From Escherichia coli (GTDB lineage: Bacteria; Pseudomonadota; Gammaproteobacteria; Enterobacterales; Enterobacteriaceae), in the NCBI RefSeq assembly GCF_011045215.1, contig NZ_CP049201.1: a DNA stretch of 64,000 nucleotides; one strand, written 5' to 3'. Numbering within the stretch: position 1 is the first letter of the stretch; each line of letters begins with the position of its first letter. The notes under the pieces were generated by a model. It was not told the origin of the DNA, searched no databases, and saw only the letters and a list, made by a program, of their open reading frames with translations. The position numbers were made by a program, and so were the translations under genes. Of this stretch, positions 30,033-50,088 are shown in pieces.

Positions 30033-30206
30033 TTATTGTCAGGAAGCGTCTGGTGTTTATTATTTTTATGCACACGTCGTGGCAGGGGATTAACAGAAGA
30101 TGATTTCTGATATGTGTTATTCCTGATTTTTCTCAGGGTTGCGCCGGGTGCTCAGGATATATAGCCAGGAGAATTCTTCGGGAAGAGGAGAGCCTCTTAT
30201 TTGTTA

Positions 30207-31451: not shown

Positions 31452-32074
31452 CAGCGGAGATACTGGGTAACATGATTCGTCAGTACTTCAGCCAGGAGCG
31501 AGCAGAAGAAGAGACCATACAGGCTCTGAATCATCTGCGCAGGGTGCTGCATGAGGTCAGTCCTTTTGCACAGGAGCCTGTGGACTGTGTGCTGTGGGTG
31601 AAAGCGGATGAGGTGGTGGCCAATGATTATAACCCCAATGTCATGGCACCGGGTGAGAAAAAACTGCTGAAACATTCACTGGAGCAGGATGGGTTCACGC
31701 AGCCTGTGGTTGTCTCGGAAGAGAAGGAGCATTATCTGGTCGTGGATGGTTTTCATCGTCAATTACTGGGCAGGGAAGCAGGTACGGGAAAACGTCTGAA
31801 GGGCTGGTTGCCAGTGACCTGTATTAATCCGGACAGAAGGGGGCAGGCCTCACGTATTGCTGCGACCATTCGACATAACCGGGCCAGGGGGAAACACCAG
31901 ATAACCTCAATGTCTGATATTGTCAGAGACCTGTCACGTCTGGGCTGGACGGATGAACGCATTGGTACAGAGCTGGGGATGGACCAGGATGAAGTGCTGA
32001 GACTGAAACAGATTAGCGGGCTGACGGAACTGTTTCAGGAAGAAAATTTCAGTCAATCCTGGACTGTTAATTAA
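31436..32074 (+). CDS. ibrB: ParB-like nuclease-domain protein, IbrB-like
   Basis: 212 aa; ParB/Srx-type motif ...HYLVVDGFHRQ... and ...IRHNRARG...; overlaps ibrA 3' end. Confidence 0.75.
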   Translation: MGDSVTAEILGNMIRQYFSQERAEEETIQALNHLRRVLHEVSPFAQEPVDCVLWVKADEVVANDYNPNVMAPGEKKLLKHSLEQDGFTQPVVVSEEKEHYLVVDGFHRQLLGREAGTGKRLKGWLPVTCINPDRRGQASRIAATIRHNRARGKHQITSMSDIVRDLSRLGWTDERIGTELGMDQDEVLRLKQISGLTELFQEENFSQSWTVN

Positions 32075-32244
32075 TCGTAATGTTCCGGGGACCTCATCTT
32101 TCACAGAAATATTCTGTTCATTAGCATTCCGGTATTCGTATAACTTCTTTCTGTGGAGAGTAAACAATGCCCAGGATGCGATGGACGCTTGATCAGAAAA
32201 AACATCACGTTGCCGCATGGCGCGCAAGCGGCCTTACCCGTGAA
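32074..32244 (+). repeat. ~170-bp direct repeat, copy 1 (IS-end-like sequence plus first 26 codons of an HTH transposase)
   Basis: Near-identical to 34339..34508 (one 1-nt indel); both contain ATGCCCAGGATGCGATGGACGCTTGATCAG... Confidence 0.8.
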
Positions 32245-32342
32245 CAGTACTGTGAACTTTACGACATTCCGTTTAAATCCCTGCGCCAGTGGCCGCAGGA
32301 TGTCGCAAAAGCCGAAAAACGGCTCTTCCGCAACCTGGGTTG
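32167..32342 (+). pseudogene. Truncated HTH transposase OrfA (IS66/IS3-like), 58 codons
   Basis: MPRMRWTLDQKKHHVAAWRASGLTREQYCELYDIPFKSLRQW...; too short for an intact orfA; not in ORF track (below size cut-off). Confidence 0.5.
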
Positions 32343-32439
32343 AGATTTTCATGCCAGTGGACTCATGACCCTCTGCCTGAGTAGTTCAAATCCGGCTCGA
32401 CTGCAAAATGGCATCTGAATCGATCGCAGTTTGGCATTC

Positions 32440-33929
32440 CATATCCTTACCCATAAATCCGAGTGATGTTATTCTGTTGATAAATTAACCATAATTTAGA
32501 GGAACTATGGAAAACTGGGTTATTAAGGAGCTGGAATCTCTGAATGTTGGTGATATCAGGCTCGAAAAGCGAATAAAGCACGTTCTCAGTGTGCTTAGCC
32601 GTTCACCAAAGGAAAGTATTCCCGTATCCTGCCGTACCTGGAGTGAGACAAAAGCTGCTTATCGTTGCTTTTCCAGTGATAAAATTTCAGCCGATAAAAT
32701 CATGGCTCCCCATAAGAAAAATATCATCGAAAGGACTAAACAGTTTAAACGGGCTCTGGTTTTACAGGATACGACTGAACTAAATTATTCTGGTCAAAAA
32801 AAGAAACAGGGCGTCGGTCCCAGACGACATGAAAATGAGCGAGATTTGTTTATTCACCCTCAATTGGTTATAAGTGATTCAGGTATTTGCTTAGGGGTTT
32901 ATGATGATTATCAATGGTTCAGAAAAGAACTCAAAACTCAGAAACAAAGTCGTAAAGAAATAACTAATGATTCACTTCACAGGAAACATATCAGTGAGAA
33001 AGAAACAGGACGGTGGATAGAAGGATATAAAAAAGCAACAGAACTGGCTAGGTCCTGTCCTGATACCCAGATAATTTCTGTTTCAGACCGTGAAGGTGAT
33101 ATTTACGACCTCTTTGAGAGTGCAGAAAATGAAAGTGGGATAAAGGCTGACTGGCTCGTAAGAATGAAGAGCATTAACCGGGCTATACTGAATTCATCAG
33201 GAAAAAGAGACTCATTACTCCTGAATGAAAAAATGATGCAGATTTTGCCACAGCAGATAATTGAGTTTACCCTTCCGGAAGGACGAGGACAACCTTCCCG
33301 CAAAGTCCAGCAGGAGCTACGCTTAGCAAGGTTGACGCTACATCCACCCACCGGTCGAAGAGGAAAGTTACGTTGTTCTCCGGTAACGGTAACTGTATTA
33401 CTTGCAAAGGAAATAAATGCTCCAGAAAGTGTCCAGCCATTAGTATGGTGGCTAATGAGTAGTGTACCTCCAGAAAAGCTGACGGAACCCGCACAGCTTA
33501 TTCAATGGTATTTATTACGCTGGCAGATTGAAGTTTTCTTTAAGGTATTAAAAAGCGGATGTCAGGTTGAGAAATTACAACTTGAGACATTTGAACGCAC
33601 AAGGAACTGTCTGGCCTTATACCTTATAATCTCATGGAGAATACTTTATCTTAGCTCATTGTATAAAATGGTTCCGGAGGAACCCTGTGATTTAATTTTC
33701 GAAAAGAAAGAATATGAGTATCTCTGGATATTGGTAGAGAATACGCCTCCACCTGAAAACATACCGAATATAAGAACGGCGGTTTTAATGCTTGCAAGAT
33801 TAGGAGGATATCTGGCAAGAAAAAATGATTCGCCTCCAGGCCCTAAGACTATATGGTCAGGATTAACACAATTAATGCTGTCAATTAATGCCATAGAAAT
33901 AGCCCAGAAAACTTGTGGGTAAGGGTATG
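32440..33929 (+). mobile_element. Intact IS4-family (IS50/Tn5-like) insertion sequence with 9-bp target duplication TTGGCATTC
   Basis: Imperfect terminal inverted repeats CATATCCTTACCCATAAAT (32440) vs CATACCCTTACCCACAAGT (rc of 33911-33929); identical 9-mers at 32431-32439 and 33930-33938. Confidence 0.8.
32507..33922 (+). CDS. IS4-family DDE transposase
   Basis: 471 aa; signature YLLRWQIEVFFKVLK (Y-x2-R-x3-E-x6-K) typical of IS4/IS50 transposases. Confidence 0.9.
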   Translation: MENWVIKELESLNVGDIRLEKRIKHVLSVLSRSPKESIPVSCRTWSETKAAYRCFSSDKISADKIMAPHKKNIIERTKQFKRALVLQDTTELNYSGQKKKQGVGPRRHENERDLFIHPQLVISDSGICLGVYDDYQWFRKELKTQKQSRKEITNDSLHRKHISEKETGRWIEGYKKATELARSCPDTQIISVSDREGDIYDLFESAENESGIKADWLVRMKSINRAILNSSGKRDSLLLNEKMMQILPQQIIEFTLPEGRGQPSRKVQQELRLARLTLHPPTGRRGKLRCSPVTVTVLLAKEINAPESVQPLVWWLMSSVPPEKLTEPAQLIQWYLLRWQIEVFFKVLKSGCQVEKLQLETFERTRNCLALYLIISWRILYLSSLYKMVPEEPCDLIFEKKEYEYLWILVENTPPPENIPNIRTAVLMLARLGGYLARKNDSPPGPKTIWSGLTQLMLSINAIEIAQKTCG

Positions 33930-34032
33930 TTGGCATTCGAATCGATCATGATTTGGCATCCATCTCCGATCACAGTTTGGCATCACAATCGATCACGATT
34001 TGGCACGCTTCCGATCATTGATTGGCATCCTG
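33930..34032 (+). repeat. Tandem array of ~23-bp GATC-containing repeats (consensus ...TTTGGCAT...CGATC); a further unit lies at 32405-32439 on the other side of the IS4 element
   Basis: Successive units ...tttggcatccatctccgatc / acagtttggcatcacaatcgatc / acgatttggcacgcttccgatc...; array is split by the IS4 insertion. Confidence 0.6.
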
Positions 34033-34345
34033 CCAGTCACTCCGGGAATTAACTCTTTTCGCCACAGTCTTCATTGCCGTGTTTAAACCAATGGAGACGG
34101 CAATGTCCAGAAAGAGAAAATCCAGGAGCACTATGGAAACCTGTTTTAAGATCCTTCAGCTCAAGTTCGACCAGAAGCTGACTAACCGTTGTATCGGGCT
34201 GACATTACACATCAGCGCCTCAACCGTTTTTGAGGTTCTTGCACGCTTCAAAGCCTCTTCTCTGTCATGGCCATTACCTGCTGATATATCCCATGACACG
34301 CTGGAGAAACTCATTTTTCCGCCCAAAGACACCTTTGCATCGTAA
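34022..34345 (+). pseudogene. N-terminal fragment of an HTH transposase (possibly IS21-family IstA-like)
   Basis: ...MSRKRKSRSTMETCFKILQLKFDQKLTNRCIGLTLHISASTVFEVL... HTH-like; truncated where the ~170-bp repeat copy 2 begins. Confidence 0.35.
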
Positions 34346-34508
34346 TGTTCCGGGGACCTCATCTTCACAGAAATATTCTGTTCATTAGCATTCCGGTATT
34401 CGTATAACTTCTTTCTGTGGAGAGTAAACAATGCCCAGGATGCGATGGACGCTTGATCAGAAAAAACATCACGTTGCCGCATGGCGCGCAAGCGGCCTTA
34501 CCCGTGAA
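34339..34508 (+). repeat. ~170-bp direct repeat, copy 2
   Basis: See copy 1 at 32074..32244; here the transposase reading frame diverges after codon 26 and is followed by an IS110-family element. Confidence 0.8.
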
Positions 34509-34657
34509 AATGTAATGAACGCATCCCACACAATTAAACACGGAGCAGTATGATGGTTAAAAGGGTGAAACTGGCAGGTGTGGAGCCTCGCAGATTTCCG
34601 GCATCATAGTGCCCAATACGGGATGCATAAAGCTCCCTCAGACTGGAGACTCCACAA

Positions 34658-35677
34658 ATGAAATATACACCGGTTGGCGTTGATATCGCAAAACATGTCA
34701 TTCAGATTCACTTCATCAATGAGCACACAGGTGAAGTGGTTGATAAACAGTTGCGTAGACAGGATTTTCTGACGTTCTTCGGCAACCGTGAGCCATGCCT
34801 GATTGGTATGGAGGCCTGTGGAGGTTCTCAGCACTGGGCACGGGAACTGACAAAACTTGGTCATAAAGTCCGGTTGTTGCAGGCCCGCTTCGTTAAGGCA
34901 TTCGTCATGGGCAATAAGAATGATGTGATGGATGCCCGGGCTATCTGGATGGCGGTTCAGCAGCCGGGTAAAGAAATCGCCGTAAAAACAGAAGAACAGC
35001 AGTCGGTACTGGTTCTGCACCGTACCCGCATGCAACTGGTGAAGTTCCGGACCGCACAAATTAATGCCCTGCACGGGACGTTACTGGAGTTTGGTGAAAC
35101 CATCCACAAAGGCCGGGCAGCGATGGAACGGGAGTTCCCTGAAGCACTGGAGCGGATGAAAGAGAGACTGCCACTGTATCTCATTACAGTGCTGGAAAAT
35201 CAGTACAACAGGCTGAATGAACTGGACTCACTGATAGATGATATAGAAAAACAGCTTACCAGTGTGGCGAGACAGAATGAAACCTGTAGACGGTTGCTGG
35301 ATATTCCTGGCGTTGGTCCACTTATTGCAACGGCAGCGTTGGCCATCATGGGGAAAGCATCAGTGTTTAAATCAGGGCGAGAGTTCGCGGCTTATGTTGG
35401 TCTGGTGCCCAGACAGACAGGCTCAGGAGGAAAAATCCGCCTGCTGGGAATAAGCAAACGTGGTGATAAATATCTGCGAACCCTGTTTATTCATGGTGCA
35501 AGGGCGGCAGCATTACTGACCAAAGAACCTGGGCCGTGGATAACCGAACTGAAAAAACGTCGTCCGGCCAGCGTGGCAATCGTCGCAATGGCAAACAAGC
35601 TGGCGCGAACGGTGTGGGCAATAGCCGCTCACGGACGTAAATACGACAAAAATCATGTCAGTATCAGGCCTTATTAA
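34658..35677 (+). CDS. IS110-family transposase
   Basis: 339 aa; N-terminal DEDD-type domain (MKYTPVGVDIAKHV...) and C-terminal ...IPGVGPLIATAALAIMG...FAAYVGLVPRQ... helix-hairpin-helix region typical of IS110 family. Confidence 0.9.
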   Translation: MKYTPVGVDIAKHVIQIHFINEHTGEVVDKQLRRQDFLTFFGNREPCLIGMEACGGSQHWARELTKLGHKVRLLQARFVKAFVMGNKNDVMDARAIWMAVQQPGKEIAVKTEEQQSVLVLHRTRMQLVKFRTAQINALHGTLLEFGETIHKGRAAMEREFPEALERMKERLPLYLITVLENQYNRLNELDSLIDDIEKQLTSVARQNETCRRLLDIPGVGPLIATAALAIMGKASVFKSGREFAAYVGLVPRQTGSGGKIRLLGISKRGDKYLRTLFIHGARAAALLTKEPGPWITELKKRRPASVAIVAMANKLARTVWAIAAHGRKYDKNHVSIRPY

Positions 35678-35862
35678 TCGCTGATACCGATAAACATAAA
35701 CTCTTTACAAAAGGGTGAATGCTGAAAGGTTGCGTGGGCAGCCGTAGTGATGACAACGACAGGTAAGACCGGGACTCGCTAAACCTGAATCTGCTCTGGA
35801 GATTAAAGCTCGCTGGGAGAATAAGGCGCGAGTCAGCGTATTACATAGGGGCCCGCAGCTTC

Positions 35863-37365
35863 ATGGCTGCAACAAGGCCGGATATAGAGCTGCAACCTAC
35901 CGTCAATGTCAAAACTACGAAAGCCTTGCAAACGGGATGCGTTCATATAGAGCAGATGAAGCTCGCACGCCAGCAGCGTTTTGGTAAAAAATGCGAATCG
36001 CTGGCCGGGATGCAGCGTTCCCTGTTCGAAGAGGATGTTGACGCGGATATCGCAGAAATCTCGGCGCGTCTGGACAAACTGCTTCCTCAGACCGGGGACG
36101 AAGAAAAAACAACACGTCCTGTTCGTAAGCCCTTGCCTTCACATCTTCCCCGTGCTGAAAAGGTTATCCCGCCAGCTGAGGAACGTTGTCCTGACTGTGA
36201 TGCCCCCCTGCACTTCATTCGCGATGAAGTCAGCGAGAAGCTGGAATATATCCCCGCACAGGTTGTGGTCCACCGCTATATCCGCCCGCAGTACAGCTGT
36301 CCCTGCTGTGAGAAAGTGTTCAGCGGAAAAATGCCGGCACATATCCTTCCGAAAAGTGCTGTTGAGCCATCGGTCATCGCACAGGTTGTCATCAGCAAAT
36401 ATACCGACCATCTGCCCCTGTATCGCCAGCAGCACATTTTCTCCCGAATGGGTGTGGAGCTCCCCGTCAGTACAATGGCGGATATGGTCGGTGTTGCTGG
36501 CGCTGCACTGGCCCCGCTGGCAAAATTGTTACGCCACGAGCTTCTGACACGGGATGTTATTCATGCAGATGAAACGTCCCTGAGGCTCCTTGATACCCGG
36601 AAAGGCGGTAAATCCTGCTCCGGCTGGCTGTGGGCTTACGTCAGCGGAGAAAGAAGCGGTCCGCCGGTCGTCTGTTTTGACTCGCAGACCGGACGGGCCC
36701 TCAGATATCCTGAGGCCTGGCTGCAGGGCTGGCGTGGTGGCACGCTGGTGAGTGACGGATACAGCGTGTACAAATCTCTGGCGGATAATGACCCCGGTAT
36801 TACATCTGCCTGTTGCTGGAGCCACGCAAGACGCGGCTTCGCCAGTCTGTATAAGGCCAGCAGGGAGCCCCGTGCAGCCATGGCGCTGAGAAAAATCGCG
36901 GGTCTTTATCGCATTGAGAAGTTCATCCGTGAACGTCCTGTGGAAAAAATACGGCAATGGCGACAACGGTATTCCCGGCCGATAGTGAATGACCTGTTTG
37001 CCTGGCTTGAAGAGCAGGAGCCGTGCTGTCCGCCCGACGGACCACTAAACAAAGCGATTAATTATATCCTGAACCGGCGCGATGAACTGAGCTGCTTCCT
37101 GGGTGACGGAGCCGTGCCCCTGGACAACAATATCTGCGAGCGTGCTATCCGCCCGGTCGTTATGGGACGAAAGGCCTGGTTGTTCGCCGGTTCACTGATG
37201 GCCGGAAACCGCGCGGCACAGATAATGAGCCTTCTGGAAACGGCAAAACGTAATGGTCTGGAGCCACATGCCTGGCTGACAGACGTCCTGGCGCGTCTGC
37301 CGGAATGGCCAGAGGAGCGACTGGCAGAGTTGCTGCCCCTTGAGGGATTTACCTTCTCCGGGTGA
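35863..37365 (+). CDS. tnpC: IS66-family transposase TnpC, second distinct copy, N-terminally truncated
   Basis: 500 aa; aligns with TnpC at 8242..9780 from the ...FGKKCES... region onward (CPDCDA...CPCC zinc-finger-like, DDE core); lacks the N-terminal coiled-coil; no cognate tnpA/tnpB adjacent. Confidence 0.85.
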   Translation: MAATRPDIELQPTVNVKTTKALQTGCVHIEQMKLARQQRFGKKCESLAGMQRSLFEEDVDADIAEISARLDKLLPQTGDEEKTTRPVRKPLPSHLPRAEKVIPPAEERCPDCDAPLHFIRDEVSEKLEYIPAQVVVHRYIRPQYSCPCCEKVFSGKMPAHILPKSAVEPSVIAQVVISKYTDHLPLYRQQHIFSRMGVELPVSTMADMVGVAGAALAPLAKLLRHELLTRDVIHADETSLRLLDTRKGGKSCSGWLWAYVSGERSGPPVVCFDSQTGRALRYPEAWLQGWRGGTLVSDGYSVYKSLADNDPGITSACCWSHARRGFASLYKASREPRAAMALRKIAGLYRIEKFIRERPVEKIRQWRQRYSRPIVNDLFAWLEEQEPCCPPDGPLNKAINYILNRRDELSCFLGDGAVPLDNNICERAIRPVVMGRKAWLFAGSLMAGNRAAQIMSLLETAKRNGLEPHAWLTDVLARLPEWPEERLAELLPLEGFTFSG

Positions 37366-38078
37366 GTGATACCTGTCGTCAGGTGTTCTTGCAGCGTGCC
37401 ATAATCTGCAGTCGGGAGTTGAACGCCTGACGACAGGAAATGAGCCAGGCCAGCCACCACGCGGGCTGACAGCGAATCAGAACCTGAGTCAGCCCGGAGC
37501 CATTCCCGGGGCTGCACTTCATCACCTGCCACCAGTACCCGTGTCAGTACTTCGCGACCTGACGCAATTATCCGACTCAGTCCTTCAGAACCCGCCTCCG
37601 ATACCAGCCTGGCGCTCGCCCCTGCGCAAGCAAAATAAATCAACCATTGTCAGACTGCGATCATTCGTATGCACCGCCGATGACGCGCCCGAAAACGCGT
37701 CAATATGAGTTCGCCGGAATATTACTTTCGATTCCCTTTATGCATAAGTCGAAATAATAATATTTTGTTGAAAAATCGAAGGTTATTTCAGGAGAGAGAA
37801 CAGGGTATTCAGGGAGTTAAGTTGTTGGATATGGGAATTCGGGAGCGTGGTCTTACTGAGTGGTCAATACTTTCGTAATCACGAAAATCACCGTCCTGGT
37901 CGCAACCAGCGTAATTCCGGAGCGGAGAATTACCACCTGGAGAAATAACACTATCGCAATAATGTTATTTCAGTGCCTTCAGACCTGTCGTGGCATTTTC
38001 CATGGTTGGATTAGGCAGGGGTACCAGCATAAATCACACTAAAAATATTAAAATGATAATTCACGTTGAAACTATATA

Positions 38079-38103
38079 CAGCCTCTGTAGTTAACAGAGG
38101 CTG
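38079..38103 (-). terminator. Hairpin downstream of the yfdX-like gene (putative terminator)
   Basis: CAGCCTCTG-TAGTTAA-CAGAGGCTG, 9-bp stem, ~40 nt after the stop on the minus strand; weak T-tract. Confidence 0.45.
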
Positions 38104-38140
38104 GTCGATATTGTATAATATGACGATTTCTGGTTAGTTA

Positions 38141-38752
38141 TCAGTGAAGGCTGACCGTATCCATAATCGTGCCATCTTCAGCGCCTTTCAGAGCGAGATT
38201 GGCTTCGTAATATTTACCTTCAGCCATTAAGCTCTGTGCACTCTTCACTTTCTGCTGAGTCTGTTTTAAAGGCATAAGCCACTGTGTTTCAGATATATTA
38301 ATTCCTGCCAGCTGCAGTTTTTCAATTGCACCTTTTTTGTCACCTTTATCCAGTTTTTTATTTGCTTCATCGATGGCTTTCTGCTTTTCTGGTGTGGCTG
38401 TAAAATCTTCTGCCAGCGTCAGTTGACTGTTAATAATGACATAAACATCGCCTTCCTGAGGGGTTTTTTTGTCTTTTCTGACCAGCTGCGCCCATGTTGT
38501 GTCTTCTGATGTTAACAATTTGTTTGCGTCATTTATCAGTTTTACAGCACCCTCCGTATCACCGCTAAAAAGAGTCAGGCGAGCATACTGAATATCTCTC
38601 ATAATATTTATGCCCCGTTGTTCCATCTTCATTTTTTCTGATGTAACAACAGGGTGATGAGCCGCTGATGTATCCTGAGTTTTTGTATCAGCAACGGCAA
38701 CGGAAGCAGCAAGAGAAGCTGCAAGGGCAATAGTGGTTAATATACGTTTCAT
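38141..38752 (-). CDS. YfdX-family periplasmic protein (putative)
   Basis: 203 aa; signal peptide (MKRILTTIALAASLAASVAVA), Lys/Ala-rich helical repeats, ...GKYYEANLALKGAEDG... motif recalled from YfdX family. Confidence 0.5.
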   Translation of the reverse strand: MKRILTTIALAASLAASVAVADTKTQDTSAAHHPVVTSEKMKMEQRGINIMRDIQYARLTLFSGDTEGAVKLINDANKLLTSEDTTWAQLVRKDKKTPQEGDVYVIINSQLTLAEDFTATPEKQKAIDEANKKLDKGDKKGAIEKLQLAGINISETQWLMPLKQTQQKVKSAQSLMAEGKYYEANLALKGAEDGTIMDTVSLH

Positions 38753-39280
38753 AAAATTACTCCATAACCATATAAAACAAACCCGTGTGTACGAAAATGA
38801 ATCATCTCACACAGGAATTTATATTAACGCTTCAGTCTATAATTAAGAAGTCTGACCACGTTATACTCTGCCAAAGATACAGCCGGGATAAAAATTCTCA
38901 TTACCAGTTAAAATTGTTATATTTTATTTATGGTCTGAAGGAGAATGTGTTTCTGTTAAGGTGGAAAATATACATAATGAGGCGCTTTCTTTCTGTATGG
39001 ACAAAGGTGGTCCTTGTCTACCAGACAGTACAATAGTGTGCGGGTTGTTATTATCAGTTACAGATGTAGTGCTATTGGTAGTGTGTTTTACATGTTGAAA
39101 TAATTAACCCGGGAATATACAGATTTGTTCTGTAAAACTCCTGAGGAAGCTGTTGTCAAATTGCACAGAAATGGCAAGGGGGCTGGTCGTACCCTGAAAC
39201 GGAAGAGTGCGCAGAATGAGTTTTGTCGCGATGGTTAGGGGAAAAACGGCAATAACACAGGTAAAAACGCTCAGTACCAG

Positions 39281-39919
39281 GTGGCATCATATCGTAACAA
39301 TGGTTTTTTTGGCCTGGTTGACGGCCTGAACTTTGCAGTACAGTACCAGGGTAAAAATGAACGTAATGATTTAGATCATTATACCAAAGGAAACGATGAT
39401 GGTTTCGGTTTCTCCACTACCTATGAATACGAGGGGGTCAGCGTTGGTGCAACTTATGCGAAATCTGATCGTACAGACATGCAGGTTCGGACAGGGAAAA
39501 CGCTCCCGGAGTTGACCGCTTCCGGTAAAAATGCAGAAGTCCGGGCGGCCGGTCTGAAATATGATGCCAATAACGTTTATCTGGCAACAACCTATTCTGA
39601 AACACAGAATATGACAGCTTTTGCTGGTGACTTTATTGCAAATAAAGCACAAAACTTTGAAGCAGTTACACAGTATCAGTTTGATTTCGGTCTGCGTCCG
39701 TCCATCGCTTATCTGCAGTCTAAAGGTAAGGATCCTGGTATGTGGGGTAACCAGGATTTGGTGAAATATGTTGATGTTGGTGCGACTTACTACTTCAATA
39801 AAAGCATATCCGCGTTTGTTGATTATAAAATCAACCTGCTTGACAAAAACAATTTCACGGATGTTCTGGGTATTAACACAGATGATATAATTGCCACTGG
39901 TCTGGTATATCAGTTCTGA
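39281..39919 (+). pseudogene. C-terminal ~210 codons of an OmpC/NmpC-type general porin (N-terminus missing)
   Basis: ...[22 protein letters not shown]...[29 protein letters not shown]...[13 protein letters not shown]...ATGLVYQF; in-frame stop at 39236-39238 and no N-terminal half upstream. Confidence 0.8.
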
Positions 39920-40552
39920 GTTAATTCTGAAAGATATACCGGAGAGGTTCCACCTCTCCGGTATATATGTGGTTCCCTCAAACCACTTTCCTGAGATACA
40001 ATTTTGTATCTGTCTGAAAATAACCTTCTGTTGTTTATCTTTATTCCAGGGGCGTTTTCGAATCCCATTTTGACAGATATTCGCGCGACTCAGAAACATC
40101 ACATATAAGGATGTCTCCGGAAAATAGTTCCCCCTCCGACATGATTTCACTTGTTTGTTACAATAGGGGGGATTGCGTTCCTGCCACATAAATTCCCACA
40201 ATCCGTGGTCAGGTTGTTTTCTCCAGTTTTACAGTACAGATAACCGAAGTTGTACCGGTATCAGGTAGCTCATATTCAGTAATATCGTCATTGTGTACAG
40301 ACAATCCTGCCACACACCAGGACTCCCGATAACTACTCACCCCATACAGAAAGGGAAGGATGTAAATTCGGTTCGCCCCTGTTTGTACTACATACTCCAA
40401 ATATTCAGATAATTGTCCGGGATTCAGGATAACTACCTCATTAAATTCTTCTTTCCACTCACGAATGGGTGCATCATGTTTTCAGTATACCTACCGTTGT
40501 CAGGATGCGGGAGAAACGATCCTTTATCCACCTTTTATATTCTTTACTGTGG

Positions 40553-41065
40553 TCACTCGTTACATAACTTCTGTCCGGACTCACCATGCCGCTGTTTACG
40601 CTTCTCATTCAGTATCATCAGCCGGGTTTCTGCCTCTTTCTGCTCCTGTGGTGTCACTTCGCCGCATGGCTGCCCTTTCAGGTCGTAACGGGCGCCACCG
40701 GCCATTAACGCACGGTAATAGCGTGGGGACTGTACATAAGACGCCACCGCCGCACGTAATGCACCTGTACCAAATACCTGTTTTCTGAGGGTGATATCCT
40801 GTATCAGGTCGTCAGCTATCCCCACTTTAATTGGCTTCGGATTTTCACGGTTGAATAACTCAGGCCAGAGCTCCACAAGACGATTAATACGCTTACGATT
40901 TTTGCGCTGGCGTTTTGTCATATGCCGCCACGGTGTTTTATTCGCAGGCTTCTGTCTGTCATTCACTTGTGGTGGTATCCGTCCTTTGTGTGCTGTGTTC
41001 GTTTTATCCTGCTGTGGCTTAGCAAAAATCCCCTGCGGTTTACGGTTAATGGTCAGCGTTACCAT
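40553..41065 (-). CDS. ProQ/FinO-domain RNA-binding protein
   Basis: ORF 40553..41257; preferred start Met 41065; C-terminal ...PIKVGIADDLIQDITLRKQ...ALRAAVASYVQSPRYYRALMAGGARYDLKGQPCGEV... aligns with ProQ N-terminal (FinO) domain. Confidence 0.75.
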   Translation of the reverse strand: MVTLTINRKPQGIFAKPQQDKTNTAHKGRIPPQVNDRQKPANKTPWRHMTKRQRKNRKRINRLVELWPELFNRENPKPIKVGIADDLIQDITLRKQVFGTGALRAAVASYVQSPRYYRALMAGGARYDLKGQPCGEVTPQEQKEAETRLMILNEKRKQRHGESGQKLCNE

Positions 41066-41903
41066 CAATACTTTTACCTTATGCTGTCGTAAAAAATGGA
41101 ATCTCATCCGGGACATTTTCCGGTGGATATAAGACAGCCCGGTGTCTGTATTGTTCCTGTCACTTACGATGAGTGCATTTGTAATCAATAAATATCGGGG
41201 GTGACGGTCATCCCGGAACAAATGACTGAAAACGGCGTCAAAGTTACAGGAAAACACCGTTTATCGACACCGGACAAAAGAGCGTTGTCGGTATCCGGCT
41301 CAAAAGCAGGAATAACAATCAGCGTCATGGCGTGGTGAATGCCGGTGCCAGGTAGTCAGCAGGTAATTATTGATGGCAAGACCAAAAGGTGCGTTAAACA
41401 AACGAACCCTGTCAGTGGTGAATATGGTACAGCCCGGTGAGGTAAAATATTTTTCACTTGAACAATTTTTAAAGAACCGGAAACGAACCAAAATGGGGCG
41501 TCGTTCCCGGAAGAACTCATCTCAGACAGAGGGCCAGGAACAAAAACAGTGTGACGGAGTAAAGGACCGGGAGCTTACCGGTAATTCAGCACCGGCAGAA
41601 CAATCTTTATGCCACGTATACTCCGGATGTTCACTTATCAGCGGTCATGGCTGAATACATAGTTGTGCTGGTGATATTGATGATGTTCTGTCATGGGGAT
41701 GGCTGGTGTGTTTTGATAATCCGTAACTTGTATGCCCGCACAGAGCTGTTTCATCTGGTGGATATGACAGTGATGAAATCATGTTGTACCGCTGTTAAAA
41801 ACAGTCGTTCAGTCCTTTATGTTACCCGTTTTGGTAACAATCAGTTGGTCATGGACGTGTGAACCATCTGTGCTTCCATTGAATTTTATGGACTGATAAA
41901 GTT

Positions 41904-42563
41904 TTGTCAGATGAATTTTTATACGGAATTCTTTTCAGTATGCATACACGAATTGATTATCTGGTGAATAAATACAGTTTTACAGAACTGAATGAATCTC
42001 CACGTCTTCGTCGGCAGTGGCAGGATGTTCTGGAGGAGTGCCGGCAGACAGAGGCCGGGCCAGAAGAACGGCTGCGTATTGCACTGCTGAATGTGGATTA
42101 CGTCACCAGTTTTGAGCTGCCTTTTCGCTTGCTGCTTACCCGGACACCACAACTGATTGCCGCGCTGCGTGAAGAATGGGGCATCAGCCAGAAAAATGTG
42201 GTGTTCAACGATAAACGGTTTGGCTGCGTGTACAGCCTGAAGGCCAGCCTTTCGGGTGTGCCGGATACATTCCGGTATCATCTGTCTCACCGTATTCGTC
42301 GCGTGGTTGGGAATGAAAACACATCATTGCCATATCAGCAGGTTGCCCGGGAAGTGAAAGCGTCCCGTGAACGGCTGAAGTATGCGCTGGAAGCAGGTTT
42401 ACTGGTGACCGCACTGGACGGGCTGTTCTGGTCTGGCAGTCAGCGTATTGCGGCTGATGTCCTGAGATTAAGACAGAGCGGAATGCCGGTAGTGACAACG
42501 AATGTGGAGGTGCACGATAACCTGACGGGAACAACCCGCAAAGTGCCGGCATACCATCTCTGA
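41904..42563 (+). CDS. Hypothetical protein (cryptic-prophage-type; family not confirmed)
   Basis: 219-aa ORF with plausible coding composition; no motif recognised. Confidence 0.35.
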   Translation: MSDEFLYGILFSMHTRIDYLVNKYSFTELNESPRLRRQWQDVLEECRQTEAGPEERLRIALLNVDYVTSFELPFRLLLTRTPQLIAALREEWGISQKNVVFNDKRFGCVYSLKASLSGVPDTFRYHLSHRIRRVVGNENTSLPYQQVAREVKASRERLKYALEAGLLVTALDGLFWSGSQRIAADVLRLRQSGMPVVTTNVEVHDNLTGTTRKVPAYHL

Positions 42564-42935
42564 TACGACCATCAGGGGGGGCTCTGGCAGCAGTATGACA
42601 TTCTTTATACTTTTACCCGTGCCTGAAAACATGTGCTAAGGAAACGGGAATGGCAAGGTCCGATTACGATATTATCAATCTGTCTCTGGAACATGAACTG
42701 AATGAGTGGCTGGCAGAGAGAGGTTATGCCGGACTGGCGGATAACCGGAACCGCCTGGCAGAGGTGGTGACCCGCAAATTGCAGGACAGCTTTTATATAA
42801 ACGTTTCCTGGGATGCGCTGAACACAGCATACAGTGAACACCCTGAGTGGTTTTCAGGGCTTGTCTCCGGGGATGAGAATTAATAAGTGGATTATGCTGC
42901 CATCAGGCAGTGTGATTGCCGGCAGGGATTTCGTT

Positions 42936-43127
42936 TTATTCTGTTTCTTCCCGGGGTTCGGGTTTGAATTTTCCCAGGAAGTTGTACATCGGTCGCATGC
43001 AGGGATGCGGATAGCCGTCCCGCATAAACACCACCCGGGTTTCCTCAACACTGGTCACGGTGACAAGCGCACCATGATCGTCTCTGTATCGCTGATTGAT
43101 TTTCGGTAATGGAATATCTTCTGACAT
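42936..43127 (-). CDS. Small hypothetical protein
   Basis: 63-aa ORF immediately upstream of the T6SS promoter region; no family recognised. Confidence 0.25.
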   Translation of the reverse strand: MSEDIPLPKINQRYRDDHGALVTVTSVEETRVVFMRDGYPHPCMRPMYNFLGKFKPEPREETE

Positions 43128-43474
43128 AGATTTCAGAACGGTAACAGTTAACTAAAATTTCACGTGGTATCGCTGAATCAGGAGACGGCGTTTCCTGATT
43201 CACACTGTCAATTTACTGTTTTACGAAACATTTTCTCCTCCCTTCTTCCTGTGTGTTTTATTGCGCACTTCCTTTATGCCATTTCCATTTCCCGAAACTC
43301 GCTTAAGTGTTGCTAAAACATTGCTCATCGCAATTTTCAATGACCGAAATCAAATATCACTATTTTTTATGCTAACCAACTGTATTAAAAGCATTCGGCG
43401 GAATAATTTTCTGCGGTTTTCTATTAATCATGGTTATAAGTTTTGCATTATGCTGGTTTTACGACACGGGACAG

Positions 43475-43560
43475 AATAAAGATCTGTATATTTGCTATAT
43501 ATCGATCGATACATCTGTCATATTGAGATTTTACAGATCTTTACTCTATAATGAGCAAAA
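43475..43560 (+). promoter_or_regulatory. T6SS promoter region with three clustered GATC sites in an AT-rich segment and a TATAAT -10
   Basis: GATC at 43481, 43504, 43536; TATAAT at 43547-43552; ~80 bp upstream of tssB. Confidence 0.55.
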
Positions 43561-43632
43561 TTAAATCAGTGCACAAGGGGAGGCATCTGCGGTGATGGAC
43601 CCCCTGAGATGCAGGCTTCACAGGAGAGAGTC

Positions 43633-44130
43633 ATGAGCAGTTCGTTTCAGAATGAAATCCCGAAAGCAAGGGTAAATCTGAAATTAGACCTACATACAGG
43701 TGGTGGGCAGAAGAAAGTGGAGCTTCCGCTCAAACTGCTGGTTGCCGGTGATTTCAGTAACGGACAGGAAGAGCGTCCACTGTCAGAGCGTGTAAAAACG
43801 GATATTAATAAAAACAATTTTAATGATGTTCTGGCAGATATCTCCCCGTCTGTGCGTCTGAATGTGGAGAACACGCTTGCCGGTGATGGCTCTGAAGAGA
43901 GCATCAGCCTGACGTTCCGCAATATGAACGATTTCACGCCAGAGCAGGTCGCCCGACAGATTCCCCGTCTTAAAGCCATGCTGGCCATGCGCAGCCTTCT
44001 GCGGGACCTGAAAGCCAATCTGCTGGATAACGTGACTTTCCGTAAAGAGCTGGAAAAAATTCTGCGTGACCCGGCACTGAGCCAGACGCTGCGTGATGAA
44101 TTGCGTGCACTGGTGCCGGAAAAGGCGTGA
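43633..44130 (+). CDS. tssB: T6SS sheath small subunit TssB (VipA)
   Basis: ORF 43609..44130; start at Met 43633 after AGGAGA; size and ...KARVNLKLDL...LPLKLLVAGDFS... typical of TssB. Confidence 0.9.
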   Translation: MSSSFQNEIPKARVNLKLDLHTGGGQKKVELPLKLLVAGDFSNGQEERPLSERVKTDINKNNFNDVLADISPSVRLNVENTLAGDGSEESISLTFRNMNDFTPEQVARQIPRLKAMLAMRSLLRDLKANLLDNVTFRKELEKILRDPALSQTLRDELRALVPEKA

Positions 44131-44151
44131 TTTAACGGATTACGAGAGAAA

Positions 44152-45696
44152 ATGCTGATGTCTGTACAGAAAGAAAAGAACGTCGCAGAGAGTGTGGTAT
44201 CTGAAACGCATACCGGCGACAGCGTATATGCTTCCCTGTTTGAAAAAATTAACCTGAATCCGGTATCTGCCCTGAGTGCACTGGATATTTGGCAGGATCC
44301 ACAGGCCATGTCAGAAGCGTCTGCAGATGAACGCCTGACGGCAGGGATGCAGGTGTTTATGGAGTGTCTGGCAAAAGCCGGTACGCAGGTGGAAAAACTC
44401 GATAAAGCGCTGATTGACCATCATATTGCAGAGCTTGATTATCAGATCAGCCGTCAGCTGGATGCTGTGCTTCATCATCCGGAATTTCAGAAAGTTGAAT
44501 CCCTGTGGCGGGGCGTGAAGTCTCTGGTGGATAAAACGGACTTCCGCCGTAATGTGAAAATTGAGCTGCTGGATCTGTCCAAAGACGATCTGCGTCAGGA
44601 TTTTGAGGATGCGCCGGAAATTATTCAGAGCGGTCTTTATCTGCAGACCTATGTGGCTGAGTATGACACGCCGGGTGGTGAGCCCATTGCCGCCCTGGTT
44701 TCGGCCTGGGAGTTTGATGCATCTGCACAGGACGTGGCACTGCTGAAAAATATTTCCCGGGTGGCGGCATCCGCGCATATGCCGTTTATTGGTTCAGTTG
44801 GCCCGGCGTTCTTCCAGAAAGAAACCATGGAAGAAGTGGCTGCCATCAAGGATATTGGCAACCACTTTGAACGTGCCGAGTACATCAAGTGGAATACTTT
44901 CCGTGAGACGGACGATGCCCGCTATATTGGTCTGGTGATGCCCCGTGTACTGGGACGCCTGCCGTATGGCCCGGATACCGTACCTGTCCGCAGCTTTAAC
45001 TATGTTGAAGAGGTGAAAGGACCGGATCACCATAAATATCTCTGGACGAACGCGTCTTTTGCCTTTGCCGCCAACATGGTGCGTAGTTTTGTCACCAATG
45101 GCTGGTGTGTTCAGATCCGCGGGCCTCAGGCCGGTGGTGCGGTGCAGGATTTGCCAATCCATCTGTATGATCTGGGAACCGGTAATCAGGTCAAAATACC
45201 GTCAGAGGTGATGATCCCGGAAACGCGGGAGTTTGAATTCGCTAATCTGGGCTTTATTTCTCTCTCTTACTACAAGAACCGGGATTATGCCTGCTTCTTC
45301 TCCGCCAACTCCGCCCAGAAACCGGCGCTGTACGATACGCCGGATGCGACAGCGAACAGCCGTATTAATGCCCGTCTTCCCTATATCTTCCTGCTGTCCC
45401 GCATTGCGCATTACCTGAAGATCATTCAGCGGGAAAATATCGGTACCACCAAAGATCGCCGTCTGCTTGAGCTGGAGCTGAATAACTGGATCCGGGGACT
45501 GGTGACGGAGATGACCGATCCGGGCGATGAGCTGCAGGCCTCGCATCCGCTGCGTGACGGAAAAGTGGTGGTGGAAGATATCGAAGACAATCCGGGATTC
45601 TTCCGCGTGAAACTCTACGCCGTACCGCATTTCCAGGTGGAAGGTATGGATGTCAGCCTGTCACTGGTTTCGCAGATGCCGAAGGCAAAAGCGTAA
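44152..45696 (+). CDS. tssC: T6SS sheath large subunit TssC (VipB)
   Basis: 514 aa, follows tssB. Confidence 0.95.
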   Translation: MLMSVQKEKNVAESVVSETHTGDSVYASLFEKINLNPVSALSALDIWQDPQAMSEASADERLTAGMQVFMECLAKAGTQVEKLDKALIDHHIAELDYQISRQLDAVLHHPEFQKVESLWRGVKSLVDKTDFRRNVKIELLDLSKDDLRQDFEDAPEIIQSGLYLQTYVAEYDTPGGEPIAALVSAWEFDASAQDVALLKNISRVAASAHMPFIGSVGPAFFQKETMEEVAAIKDIGNHFERAEYIKWNTFRETDDARYIGLVMPRVLGRLPYGPDTVPVRSFNYVEEVKGPDHHKYLWTNASFAFAANMVRSFVTNGWCVQIRGPQAGGAVQDLPIHLYDLGTGNQVKIPSEVMIPETREFEFANLGFISLSYYKNRDYACFFSANSAQKPALYDTPDATANSRINARLPYIFLLSRIAHYLKIIQRENIGTTKDRRLLELELNNWIRGLVTEMTDPGDELQASHPLRDGKVVVEDIEDNPGFFRVKLYAVPHFQVEGMDVSLSLVSQMPKAKA

Positions 45697-45711
45697 GGCA
45701 GGCGTCGGGAA

Positions 45712-47049
45712 ATGAAGATTTATCGTCCACTGTGGGAAGACGGGGCTTTTCTGATGCCCCAGCAGTTTCAGCAGCAGGCTGCCTGGGATGTTCATCTGGC
45801 AGACAGCGTTGCCAGAATGGGGCTGGCGCATCCATGGGGCGTGGTGGCTGCAGAGTTTGATGACTCTCTGTTACCTCTTTCACGGTTGAATGCCACCCGT
45901 CTGATTGTTCGTTTCCCGGACGGAACGCTTATTGATACGGAACGCGCGGATAATCTGCCTCCGGTCTGTGATTTATCGACGGTTTCTGATCGTTCCCTGG
46001 TGGATATTGTGCTGGCACTACCGTTACTGAATGCTAACGGTGGCAACCTTGATAATGGCAGTGAGAGCGAGCGTCCGCGTCGCTGGAAATCAGAAAGGGT
46101 GAATGTGCAGGAGCTGGCCGGGCATGAGCAAAGCGAAGTGGCGGTATTGCGGCATAACCTGACTCTGCGCATGGCTCATCAGGAAAATGCTGCCTGGCTG
46201 ACCTGTCCCGTTACCCGTCTTGTTCGTGATGCACAGGGACAGTGGTGCAGGGACCCGCGTTTTATTCCCCCTCTGCTGACGCTGTCTGCCAGTCCTTCGC
46301 TGATGACTGAACTTGCGGAGTTGCTTCATCACCTGCAGGCGCGTCGCCAGCGACTGATGTCCATGCGTCGGGAGAACAATGCCCGTCTTGCGGATTTTGC
46401 AGTGGCGGACGTGTCGTTGTTCTGGTTGCTGAATGCCCTGAACAGTGCGGAGCCTGTTCTGAAAGAGTTGCTTGACATGCCTTACCGCCACCCGGAACTG
46501 TTGTACAGGGAGCTTGCCCGACTGGCAGGCTCCCTGCTCACATTCTCGCTTGAGCATAATGTGGATGCGGTTCCGGCATACCATCATGAAACACCTGAAA
46601 ATGTTTTCCCACCTTTGCTTTCTTTGCTGAACCAGCTGCTGGAGGCAAGCCTGCCTTCCCGTGTGGTCTTCATTGAACTGAAACAAAATGGTGTGATGTG
46701 GGAGGGGGCATTACATGATGCGCGTCTGCGCGAAGGGGCTGATTTCTGGCTTTCAGTGCGCTCTTCCATGCCCGGGCATGAACTGCAGACGAAGTTTCCG
46801 CAGCTATGCAAAGCCGGAAGCCCCGATGATGTGTCTGAGGTGGTGAATGTGGCGCTGAGCGGGGTCATTATCCGTCCGGTTACGCATGTACCGGCGGCCA
46901 TTCCACTCCGGCTGGAAAACCAGTATTTCGCGCTGGATTTAAGTACGGATGCGGCCCGGGCGATGCTGGACGCGGGGCGTTGTACTTTCTACACCCCGGC
47001 ATCGCTGGGGGATGTGAAACTGGAACTTTTTGCGGTGCTGCGGACATGA
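45712..47049 (+). CDS. tssK: T6SS baseplate protein TssK
   Basis: 445 aa; N-terminal MKIYRPLWEDGAFLMPQQFQQQ... characteristic of TssK. Confidence 0.85.
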   Translation: MKIYRPLWEDGAFLMPQQFQQQAAWDVHLADSVARMGLAHPWGVVAAEFDDSLLPLSRLNATRLIVRFPDGTLIDTERADNLPPVCDLSTVSDRSLVDIVLALPLLNANGGNLDNGSESERPRRWKSERVNVQELAGHEQSEVAVLRHNLTLRMAHQENAAWLTCPVTRLVRDAQGQWCRDPRFIPPLLTLSASPSLMTELAELLHHLQARRQRLMSMRRENNARLADFAVADVSLFWLLNALNSAEPVLKELLDMPYRHPELLYRELARLAGSLLTFSLEHNVDAVPAYHHETPENVFPPLLSLLNQLLEASLPSRVVFIELKQNGVMWEGALHDARLREGADFWLSVRSSMPGHELQTKFPQLCKAGSPDDVSEVVNVALSGVIIRPVTHVPAAIPLRLENQYFALDLSTDAARAMLDAGRCTFYTPASLGDVKLELFAVLRT

Positions 47050-47699
47050 ATAAACCTGTTATCTCCCGGGCTGAACAGATTTTTTATCCCGGCTGGCTGA
47101 TGGTCAGCCAGCTGCGCAGCGGGCAACCGGTTGAGGATGGTAAGGCCCTGTATCGCCGTGCCTGTCAGCTGGTGAAACAGGCGCGTGAAGAGCTGGCCGA
47201 AGCAGGATTCAGTCAGGAAAACAGTGACACCATGTTGTATGCCTTCTGTGCCCTGCTGGACGAGAGTGTGCTGAACCGCGAAAAAACAGATGATGGCTGG
47301 CACACCTGGCAGCAGGACCCGCTGCAGGCTCATTTTTTTGGTACGCTCAATGCCGGTGAAGAGCTCTGGGAGCGTATTCGTGAGCAACTGAAATTACCAG
47401 CGCCGGATGTGGCGGTACTGACATGCCTCTGCCGTACGCTTCAGCTCGGTTTTACCGGTCAGTACCGGTCGCAGGATGATGAGCGTCGCGAAGATGTAAT
47501 ACGCGCACTGACAGCGCGTGTTCCTGCATTTACTTTCGCACAGGATGCGCCGGTGGTGGTGCGTGCACCGGGTTACCGTGCTGGCAGAACGATGTACTGG
47601 TTGTCATGGGTGGCGGGTATTGTGACGCTGGCTGGTCTCTGGTGTGTGCTTTCTTCTGTGCTTGCAGACCAGGTGGCACGGCTTACCGGACAGGGATAA
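47046..47699 (+). CDS. tssL: T6SS membrane-complex protein TssL (DotU-like)
   Basis: ORF 46980..47699; start at Met 47046 (ATGA overlap with tssK stop); single C-terminal TM helix (...WLSWVAGIVTLAGLWCVLSSVL). Confidence 0.85.
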   Translation: MNKPVISRAEQIFYPGWLMVSQLRSGQPVEDGKALYRRACQLVKQAREELAEAGFSQENSDTMLYAFCALLDESVLNREKTDDGWHTWQQDPLQAHFFGTLNAGEELWERIREQLKLPAPDVAVLTCLCRTLQLGFTGQYRSQDDERREDVIRALTARVPAFTFAQDAPVVVRAPGYRAGRTMYWLSWVAGIVTLAGLWCVLSSVLADQVARLTGQG

Positions 47700-47701
47700 C
47701 C

Positions 47702-49432
47702 ATGCACGTACGTTCCCGTCTCTGGCTGACAATACTGAGTCTGTTCCTGACACTGTGGCTGATTTCGGGATTCCTGCCGCTGTCTGTAGTAAACCAGATA
47801 ATACTGACCCTGGTTTCAGTTGTGGCGGCGGGGCTTGTGCTGTGGTACCAGTGGCGTTGTCTGTCTTCCCGTCGTGATATCCCGGAGAAGGCCGGCGATG
47901 ACGGTCTGCCGCCTGAGTATTTTCAGGGACATGTGCTGCTTGTTGCCGGAAACTCAGATGCGTGGTTCGAATCCGGTCAGGCATACCGGGAAACAGCATC
48001 GGGATGGTATCTTCGTGTGGATACGCCGGAGCAGATGAGAATACTGGCAGAACGGTTGTCGTATAACCGTCCGGCCCTGTGTGGCCAGGTCGTGGTCATG
48101 CTGGGACTTTTACCGGAGCAGCATACCTCAGATGAAGCTTTTCTGCCGTGGTTGCGGAACTGGCAGCGTGCAGTCATGCAGTGCCGGCAGTGGCTGAATA
48201 CCACGCCACCGGTGCTGGTGACATTGATGGTTTCAGAGCCGTCACCACAAAACACATCCTTAAATAAGCACTCTGCACACTGGTTTACACTGACACCGGA
48301 CCTGCCGGGAATGCATATACGCCTGACAGAAGCCGGAGCCATTCCGGCAGAGGAATGGCTGCTGGCGTGTGATGCAGCGTCCAGGCTCCGGTGCGTCAGT
48401 GAACTGTTATGGCTGAATGCCATGTTGTCCTGGTACAACAGGGTTACTGATGCCCTGACAGATATTTGCCGGCAGGAGCACTTTTATTTCCGGCCGGTTG
48501 CCGTTGGATTCTGTCTGACGTCGGTTGCGGCCCACCCCGGTAATCTCTGGCAACAACAACTGACGTCCCTCACTGCACTGCCACCGTCTGCCGGCGTGTC
48601 ATCACAGGCACTGCCGTTGCCGGATATTCTGCTGTCCGGTATCCCCCGTCATCGTGGACTCAGTCACTGGCACAGACTTTGTCGCCAGACAGGGGCGATT
48701 GTCGGTGTTTTTCTTCTGCTGGCTATACTGGCGTCTTTTATGAATAACCAGCGACTGGTTCGCAGTGTGGGGGAGCACCTGACGGCCTGGCACCGGATGA
48801 GCGGATATTCATCTGAATCGAAAACAACAGCACTGCAACGTCTTCAGGCTGACAACCAGTTACTGAACGACTGGCAGCAACGTGGTGTGCCACAGCGTTA
48901 CGGACTGGGATTGTATCAGGGAATGTGGCTGATATCGCCGGTTGAGCGAGCGATTAGTGAGCGGGTTGCACCACTGCCTCCCCGTCCGGTGATACAGAAA
49001 GTTACTCAGACGCCGAAAACGGTTCGCCTTAACAGCCTGGCGCTGTTTGATGCCGGTAAATGGACGCTGAAGCCGGGCGCCACAAAATGGCTGGTGAATG
49101 CCCTGGTGGATATTAAGGCAAAAGCAGGCTGGTTGATTGTGGTCAGTGGCCACACGGACAATACCGGTGACCCGCAGCGCAACCAGGCTCTGTCCCTGAA
49201 GCGTGCAGAGGCCGTTCGCGACTGGATGCGGGATACCGGCGATATTCCTCAAAGTTGTTTTGCCGTACAGGGATACGGTGAAAGCCGCCCTGTGGCCCCG
49301 AATGACACGGCGGAAGGCCGTGCGCGTAACCGCCGTGTTGAAATCAGTCTGGTACCGCAGGCCGATGCCTGTCGTCTGCCGGACGCTTCCCCTGCGCCGG
49401 AAGAGGGCGCATCAGAAAACATAACGGAGTAA
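47702..49432 (+). CDS. tagL: TagL-like T6SS accessory protein: polytopic inner-membrane protein with C-terminal OmpA-type peptidoglycan-binding domain
   Basis: ORF 47606..49432; start at Met 47702; N-terminal TM helices, third TM near residue 370, C-terminal ...VVSGHTDNTGDPQRNQALSLKRAEAV...RNRRVEISL. Confidence 0.75.
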   Translation: MHVRSRLWLTILSLFLTLWLISGFLPLSVVNQIILTLVSVVAAGLVLWYQWRCLSSRRDIPEKAGDDGLPPEYFQGHVLLVAGNSDAWFESGQAYRETASGWYLRVDTPEQMRILAERLSYNRPALCGQVVVMLGLLPEQHTSDEAFLPWLRNWQRAVMQCRQWLNTTPPVLVTLMVSEPSPQNTSLNKHSAHWFTLTPDLPGMHIRLTEAGAIPAEEWLLACDAASRLRCVSELLWLNAMLSWYNRVTDALTDICRQEHFYFRPVAVGFCLTSVAAHPGNLWQQQLTSLTALPPSAGVSSQALPLPDILLSGIPRHRGLSHWHRLCRQTGAIVGVFLLLAILASFMNNQRLVRSVGEHLTAWHRMSGYSSESKTTALQRLQADNQLLNDWQQRGVPQRYGLGLYQGMWLISPVERAISERVAPLPPRPVIQKVTQTPKTVRLNSLALFDAGKWTLKPGATKWLVNALVDIKAKAGWLIVVSGHTDNTGDPQRNQALSLKRAEAVRDWMRDTGDIPQSCFAVQGYGESRPVAPNDTAEGRARNRRVEISLVPQADACRLPDASPAPEEGASENITE

Positions 49433-49437
49433 TTTTT

Positions 49438-49929: not shown

Positions 49930-49937
49930 TTCTCCCG

Positions 49938-49976
49938 GACGGGCAGGGCATCCTGTCCGTCATTTTTATTTTTTCT
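49938..49976 (+). terminator. Rho-independent terminator after hcp
   Basis: GACGGGCAGG-GCAT-CCTGTCCGTC hairpin (10-bp stem, one mismatch) followed by ATTTTTATTTTTT. Confidence 0.6.
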
Positions 49977-50088
49977 TCAGCATCTGTTGGCGGGTGCTGA
50001 AGAAAAAATTCTCAATCCTGAACACAGACCTGATGCGCCTGGGTTACGGCGAAGGGCGGTAGCGTGCCTGACGGTCTCCTGACAGTGA

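Follow-up and report, generated by a model that had tools for sequence, protein, structure and literature searches.

The window (the whole 64-kb stretch of E. coli DNA that was analysed) carries the 3' part of a porin gene at 39281-39919 on the plus strand, between a yfdX-family gene and a convergent gene of the ProQ/FinO family. The features of the locus are as follows.

38141-38752, minus strand: YfdX-family gene (PF10938, E 5.6e-39), the left neighbour, now in the place of the porin 5' half and its upstream region
38753-39113, no strand: AT-rich intergenic tract (GC 0.33-0.37), present only in C5 / RM13752-type islands
39114-39280, no strand: orphan non-coding segment fused to the remnant in every remnant copy, including that of RM8082
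39236-39238, plus strand: TAG stop in the porin frame (as translated over 38900-39922), lying 15 codons before the remnant
39279-39281, no strand: 5' truncation junction, at which homology to intact porins starts; no IS end or repeat
39281-39919, plus strand: 3' remnant of an NmpC/Lc/OmpD-type porin gene (codons 154-365 plus stop; frame open in the window copy)
39920-40080, plus strand: IpeX-like structured 3' UTR of the porin cassette (hairpins 1-3, conserved AACCTTCTGTT stretch, terminator)
39934-39966, plus strand: hairpin 1 of the 3' UTR (15-bp perfect stem, 3-nt loop; from a repeat search and MFE fold)
40049-40075, plus strand: degenerate Rho-independent terminator, in which AAT at 40061-40063 breaks the GGGGCG/CGCCCC stem
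40553-41257, minus strand: ProQ/FinO-family gene (PF04352, E 1.5e-23), the convergent right neighbour and synteny anchor

The surrounding island is composite, with fimbriae, IS elements, yfdX, the ProQ/FinO gene and a type VI secretion system (T6SS). An IS66 TnpC gene lies at 8242-9780 (minus strand), and a chaperone-usher fimbrial operon in the region 11714-21483 (fimbrial subunit, usher at 13053-15629, PapD chaperone); three consecutive ORFs of ~315 aa at 18579-21483 have no mutual BLASTP similarity, and the one tested had no Pfam match. Envelope/polysaccharide-type genes occupy 22177-27795 (polysaccharide deacetylase, GT4 glycosyltransferase, DUF535, DUF4056), and an AraC-type regulator (28729-29568) lies just upstream of a PAPS-reductase/DUF3440 gene, which we take to be IbrA-like; a 212-aa ORF without a Pfam match follows the latter and overlaps it (30201-32074 for the two). 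The mobile-element cluster at 32000-37725 holds a Tn5-like transposase (32507-33922), an IS110 element (34658-35677), another IS66 TnpC (35863-37365) and an IS-end-like sequence that is repeated at 32077-32320 and 34342-34508. On the other side, the T6SS cluster at 43609-58145 includes tssB, tssC, tssK, tssL, an OmpA-family gene, hcp and tssH/ClpV, with VgrG at 53716-56238 and then an overlapping class-3 lipase-domain protein (56235-58145) which is likely to be a Tle-type effector.

Island variants differ from the window close to the porin remnant. There is an indel at 40267-40408, where RM13752-type islands have 342 nt including a transposase-domain fragment and the window has 141 nt, and one variant (L027) carries an IS66 insertion immediately to the right of the remnant. 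An imperfect inverted repeat of 17 nt (15/17) is found at 39123-39139 and 40225-40241, just inside two strain-specific breakpoints (39114 in RM8082 and 40267 in the RM13752 group); it was rejected as evidence of a mobile unit, as we estimate that ~0.4 such pairs are expected by chance in 3.1 kb.

The ORF at 39281-39919 has 212 codons plus a stop, and its product ends in ATGLVYQF, retaining the C-terminal aromatic beta-signal (YQF). An earlier note on this DNA had read it as the C-terminal part of an OmpC/NmpC-type porin with a GLVYQF end, and family searches bear this out: the Pfam model PF00267 (Porin_1) matched at 276.6 bits (E 4.7e-82; cut-off 23.7) over profile positions 126-337 of 337, and therefore the domain is represented by its C-terminal ~63% alone rather than by the full profile of a complete 16-strand barrel (~340-365 aa precursor). 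In a tblastn search with DLP12 NmpC, residues 154-365 of 365 aligned to 39281-39916 with 81% amino acid identity and no gaps (~78-80% nucleotide identity to DLP12 nmpC codons 154-365); of the 365 codons the remnant thus retains the final 212 (58%, at the 3' end), and the 5' 42% is gone. Mapped onto solved structures, it covers residues 129-346 of 346 of mature OmpC (2J1N) and 137-340 of 340 of OmpF. In terms of porin topology it begins just past the L3 eyelet loop and keeps approximately strands 6-16. The PEFGG motif of the L3 constriction is missing, lying at residues 133-137 of an intact relative (P0002, described below) and hence upstream of the codon-154 breakpoint, as are the N-terminal Sec signal peptide and a translation start: the first codon, GTG at 39281, is the internal Val154 codon of the intact protein and not a start codon. 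No Shine-Dalgarno sequence could be read before this GTG, and promoter-like sites gave no signal above background (4 found against 4.7 expected in shuffled sequence).

The remnant belongs to the phage-borne NmpC/Lc/OmpD porin group. The nearest full-length genes found by megablast in complete E. coli genomes were the nmpC genes of DLP12 prophages, between essD and quuD, and a phage collection yielded homologs in 42 records, including those of lambdoid phages, PA-2 lc, phage 434 and P7 nmpC, variously annotated as OmpD, NmpC or OmpC. Against the NCBIfam model for the porin OmpC subfamily (NF007841), the remnant scored 265 bits, below the cut-off of 484.

The left edge of the homology is sharp. 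Matched in register, the 60 nt before 39281 share 20-30% identity, which is the random level, with the intact island porin of contig L006 and with DLP12 nmpC, whereas these two intact genes are 78% identical to one another over the same stretch; from 39281 onward, identity to the intact genes is 78-100% in each 60-nt block. The in-frame stop that had been noted just upstream is the TAG at 39236-39238, and the porin-frame translation beyond it contains many further stops. A repeat search found no IS end or repeat at the junction, where at most a TACC microhomology is visible.

The same junction was found in six complete genomes (C5, RM13752, RM11911, RM13745, F2_407_2_2 and RM8082), mostly from cattle, and in 10 loci that were fetched through the YfdX neighbour and which represent nine further assemblies plus RM11911 again; it is identical in 16 independent assemblies examined. 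The exact YfdX protein occurs in 721 blocks of the public collection and adjoins the remnant in 10 of the 10 places read. These results bear on the idea that a whole gene is present after all and only seems truncated through an error of assembly or sequencing, whether a frameshift or a mis-join at a repeat. Nothing was found in favour of this idea. The sequence before 39281 is unrelated to porin genes in every frame, the junction recurs in the six complete genomes and the 10 further loci (nine separate assemblies), and no repeat or IS lies at it, which makes this explanation barely credible. The possibility allowed for in the earlier note, that correcting a sequencing error would recover the N-terminus, thus falls away, both on the random-level identity of the upstream 60 nt and on the recurrence of the junction.

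The earlier note had also held that no N-terminal half is present, and searches for one came back empty. With full-length NmpC, tblastn against the whole 64-kb window (E ≤ 10) found residues 154-365 and nothing credible elsewhere; blastn against the window with the intact island ortholog's 5' half and the region preceding it found nothing except IS ends, and the same query against 5,426 complete E. coli genomes found nothing above 81% identity, the best match being the ordinary nmpC. A displaced 5' half is ruled out by these searches within the 64 kb and the 5,426 complete genomes.

Searches with the DNA which now precedes the remnant found no source for it. Distant blastn searches of E. coli genomes with 38753-39280, and especially with 39114-39280, returned only the six remnant carriers, no homolog of 39114-39280 being found outside remnant-carrying E. 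coli. Among plasmids the search matched only yfdX itself (84% on the C5 plasmid), a tblastx comparison with the neighbourhood of that plasmid yfdX gave no source for the 39114-39280 segment, and one chance match, in Methylobacterium, was all that a 20-mer search of 100,044 species-representative genomes returned for the fused DNA. RM8082 differs to the left of 39114, where it has a fimbrial region matching 7.9-15.5 kb of the window, and therefore 39114-39280 was fused to the remnant before this second rearrangement. The YfdX-like neighbour and the AT-rich tract were both correctly called in the earlier note; GC falls to 0.33-0.35 at about 38800-39100, and the tract at 38753-39113 is probably the upstream or regulatory region of the divergent yfdX.

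An intact counterpart of the remnant occupies the same position in related islands. A protein search turned up a single close relative of full length, an E. coli porin of 365 aa (P0002; EKN8423214.1, named 'porin OmpC' by NCBI) with 92% amino acid identity to the remnant, in assemblies GCA_013061645.1, GCA_028898425.1 and others; its gene is 92.6% identical in nucleotides to the remnant coding part, and the protein scores 507 bits against the NCBIfam OmpC-subfamily model, passing the cut-off. Synteny was read at L006-L010 (five places shown from six contigs), where the gene order is porin, ProQ/FinO (minus strand), 207 aa, 77 aa, DUF4222, then tssB, tssC and tssK. The ProQ/FinO gene, lying beside the intact porin in these strains, therefore serves as the synteny anchor, and the shared ProQ, DUF4222 and T6SS neighbours make the intact gene the syntenic ortholog expected of a unitary pseudogene. 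As the ortholog is at the same island position, the truncation is taken to be the derived state, and since the 5' half of the intact gene has no counterpart in the window, it was the window lineage which lost everything 5' of codon 154. The suggestion in the earlier note that the gene was truncated during island rearrangement is supported by this comparison.

Alignment of 39290-40057 of the window to the intact-porin contigs gave 89% identity by BLAST; across the ProQ gene identity is ~80%, and from 41700 on, in the direction of the T6SS and within it, 98%. The porin-to-ProQ segment is thus 80-93% identical between island types against 98% for the adjacent T6SS, and so is a divergent allelic patch. 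One intact-porin island (L006) has at 4544-4667, between the ProQ and 207-aa genes, an IS200/IS605-type element with a match to the STnc490 sRNA (146 bits), and this element is absent from the window.

Homology between the intact island copy and DLP12 nmpC begins 81 nt ahead of the start codon and continues as far as the terminator, ~1.33 kb in all, and the porin with its 3' UTR forms a self-contained, 'moron'-like unit. Blastn and tblastx of 40058-43650 of the window against three DLP12 loci found no similarity beyond this cassette. We rejected the idea that the whole porin-to-DUF4222 stretch is a prophage relic, as the flanks share nothing with DLP12; nor does the remnant sit as a moron within a lambdoid prophage, its left flank being yfdX and IS elements instead of a Q antiterminator and S/R/Rz genes.

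Several measures point to relaxed constraint on the remnant. With NmpC as outgroup, 13 lineage-specific amino acid changes were counted in the remnant against 2 in the intact island lineage, and at the nucleotide level the remnant has 13 nonsynonymous to 12 synonymous changes where the intact lineage has 4 to 10. At 16 positions the remnant differs from the consensus (at least 80%), while 93 full-length homologs do so at a median of 6 and a maximum of 15, and five of the remnant's replacements (T156S, G192D, W241R, A283T and N328S) are at positions invariant in 93 of the 93. Further disabling mutations have accumulated in other remnant copies: 10 of 13 carry a frameshifting 1-nt deletion at 39433, one has an extra 5-nt deletion (39606-39610), and three of the 13 have lost 2 nt from hairpin 3 of the UTR. 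Pairwise dN/dS between the remnant and the intact ortholog is 0.16, and this low value, together with the open frame, implies that the truncation is fairly recent or that the greater part of the divergence is older than it. The last ~100 nt of the remnant are only 78-88% identical to the intact ortholog, and mosaic recombination could in part inflate the replacement excess.

Could a truncated 212-aa protein nevertheless be made from the GTG at 39281 and have acquired a new, non-porin role? The frame is open in the window, C5, RM8082 and L029, and gene callers sometimes predict the remnant as a protein (P0001, 49 member sequences); against this, the predicted product has no signal peptide, no ribosome-binding site precedes the GTG, which is an internal valine codon, the frame is shifted at 39433 in most copies, and residues have been replaced at invariant barrel positions. 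From what is known of porin biogenesis, a protein with about 11 of the 16 barrel strands should misfold in the cytoplasm. We therefore consider such a protein extremely improbable and treat the remnant as a pseudogene, which is presumably not expressed. Its status is already known and is flagged by public annotation, RefSeq (PGAP) labelling it in the six complete genomes as 'porin; incomplete; partial in the middle of a contig; missing N-terminus'. Every element of the earlier reading has thus stood; what it missed was this existing pseudogene annotation and the conserved IpeX-like 3' UTR that follows the stop codon.

The 3' UTR of the window aligns to the nmpC/lc 3' UTR of K-12 DLP12, PA-2 and six lambdoid phages, with a fold common to all versions in which three hairpins are followed by the AACCTTCTGTT stretch and then by the terminator; in hairpins 1 and 2, compensatory changes preserve the pairing in both island versions. 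A covariance model (R1) built from nine sequences (DLP12, PA-2, the six phages and the intact island copy), with the window left out, matched 39915-40080 over its full length at 96.6 bits (E 7.6e-26). The stretch 39920-40080, which directly follows the stop codon of a porin of nmpC/lc type and is similar in both sequence and structure, is therefore an un-annotated homolog of the IpeX region. Rfam gave no match in 37500-42000 of the window and likewise none at the K-12 IpeX locus; Rfam has no IpeX model, and the empty result for the window is therefore uninformative. Castillo-Keller et al. (2006) reportedly placed ipeX between the nmpC stop codon and the terminator, with the same sequence in PA-2 lc.

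IpeX is a 167-nt sRNA of DLP12 which published work maps to this region and which is processed from the phage porin transcript (PMC12197685, PMC5069750, PMC3333887), and which represses ompC and ompF (PMC12197685, PMC5069750). This raises an alternative in which the DNA has been kept and used for its 3' UTR, an IpeX-like RNA being read from an upstream promoter through the dead remnant to lower OmpC/OmpF, maybe with the island ProQ/FinO protein as chaperone. The full-length match of the covariance model and the compensatory changes in hairpins 1 and 2 would fit such a use, as would the known action of IpeX on ompC and ompF, the adjacency of the porin cassette to the ProQ/FinO gene in both island types and the wide spread of the remnant arrangement, judged by the 721 blocks with the exact YfdX neighbour. 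However, IpeX is produced within the porin mRNA from the porin promoter (PMC12197685), and here that promoter has been deleted along with the 5' half, and promoter signal is not above background. The terminator, too, speaks on both sides: CGC stands at 40061-40063 in 11 of 13 other copies, which keep an intact terminator, but the window and RM8082 have AAT, three substitutions which break 2-3 stem pairs, and a simple terminator scan calls no intact Rho-independent terminator in the window copy. Comparison of the remnant copies moreover shows no stronger conservation of the UTR, with ~6 variable events over its 161 nt, than of the dead coding sequence, with 12 over 639 nt, and the compensatory changes are also found in the intact island copy and so probably arose before the truncation. 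We regard this alternative as very unlikely; the pattern fits neutral drift of the whole remnant, UTR included.

In our view the feature is, with little doubt, a non-functional truncated porin pseudogene left by island rearrangement, a reading built on the homology and breakpoint of the remnant, on the intact ortholog in syntenic position, on the recurring junction and on the observed decay. In the ancestral island, a complete porin unit of ~1.33 kb, comprising a leader of ~80 nt, the 365-codon gene and the IpeX-like 3' UTR with its terminator, would have lain immediately upstream of the convergent ProQ/FinO gene and the T6SS cluster. A rearrangement, either a deletion or a replacement, would then have removed all that was 5' of codon 154, namely the promoter, the signal peptide, approximately the first five beta-strands and loops L1-L3 with the PEFGG eyelet, and unrelated DNA would have been joined in its place, first the 39114-39280 segment and then the yfdX segment. 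With neither an IS end nor a repeat at the junction, the event looks like illegitimate recombination. Any product of the remnant would be neither exported nor able to form a pore, and the remnant itself is drifting.

This is an ordinary pseudogene, to which the IpeX-like 3' UTR is the only notable addition. The result tidies the annotation, giving a porin pseudogene of phage ancestry a precise breakpoint at codon 154 and a syntenic intact ortholog which demonstrates the loss, and it suggests that a T6SS/fimbrial genomic island, and not a prophage, once housed a phage-type porin and IpeX 'moron' cassette, whose un-annotated IpeX-like 3' UTR survives behind the dead gene. Should the porin cassette have been reduced to a carrier of an IpeX-like 3'-UTR RNA, transcribed by read-through, bound by the island ProQ/FinO protein and tuning OmpC/OmpF, to which we give very little credence, this would explain the wide spread of the yfdX-remnant-proQ arrangement in cattle-associated E. 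coli. The understanding of porins or sRNAs is unchanged unless the RNA proves to be expressed.

Among known systems, the family closest to the pseudogene comprises NmpC of DLP12/qsr', Lc of PA-2 and the Salmonella OmpD-like porins of lambdoid phages, with which it shares the same length over codons 154-365 and the same 3' UTR after the stop, although it retains the 3' 58% only. Unlike NmpC and Lc in prophages, it has no adjoining Q antiterminator or lysis genes and its flanks do not resemble those of DLP12, as it lies in a T6SS/fimbrial genomic island beside yfdX and the ProQ/FinO gene. The window UTR resembles IpeX in its position after the porin stop and in homologous sequence and hairpins, but it is about 70% identical, lacks the promoter and precursor mRNA and has a broken terminator stem, and any function is putative. 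The nmpC pseudogene of K-12 is likewise an inactivated porin of the same family with its IpeX region cut off from the promoter (PMC3333887); there, IS5 lies near the 3' end and the 5' part is kept, whereas in the remnant the 5' 42% is deleted with no IS at the junction. Another parallel is the intact island porin EKN8423214.1, which has the same island position, the same right-hand neighbours and the same cassette end at the terminator as the remnant, and which differs in being full length and a diverged allele.
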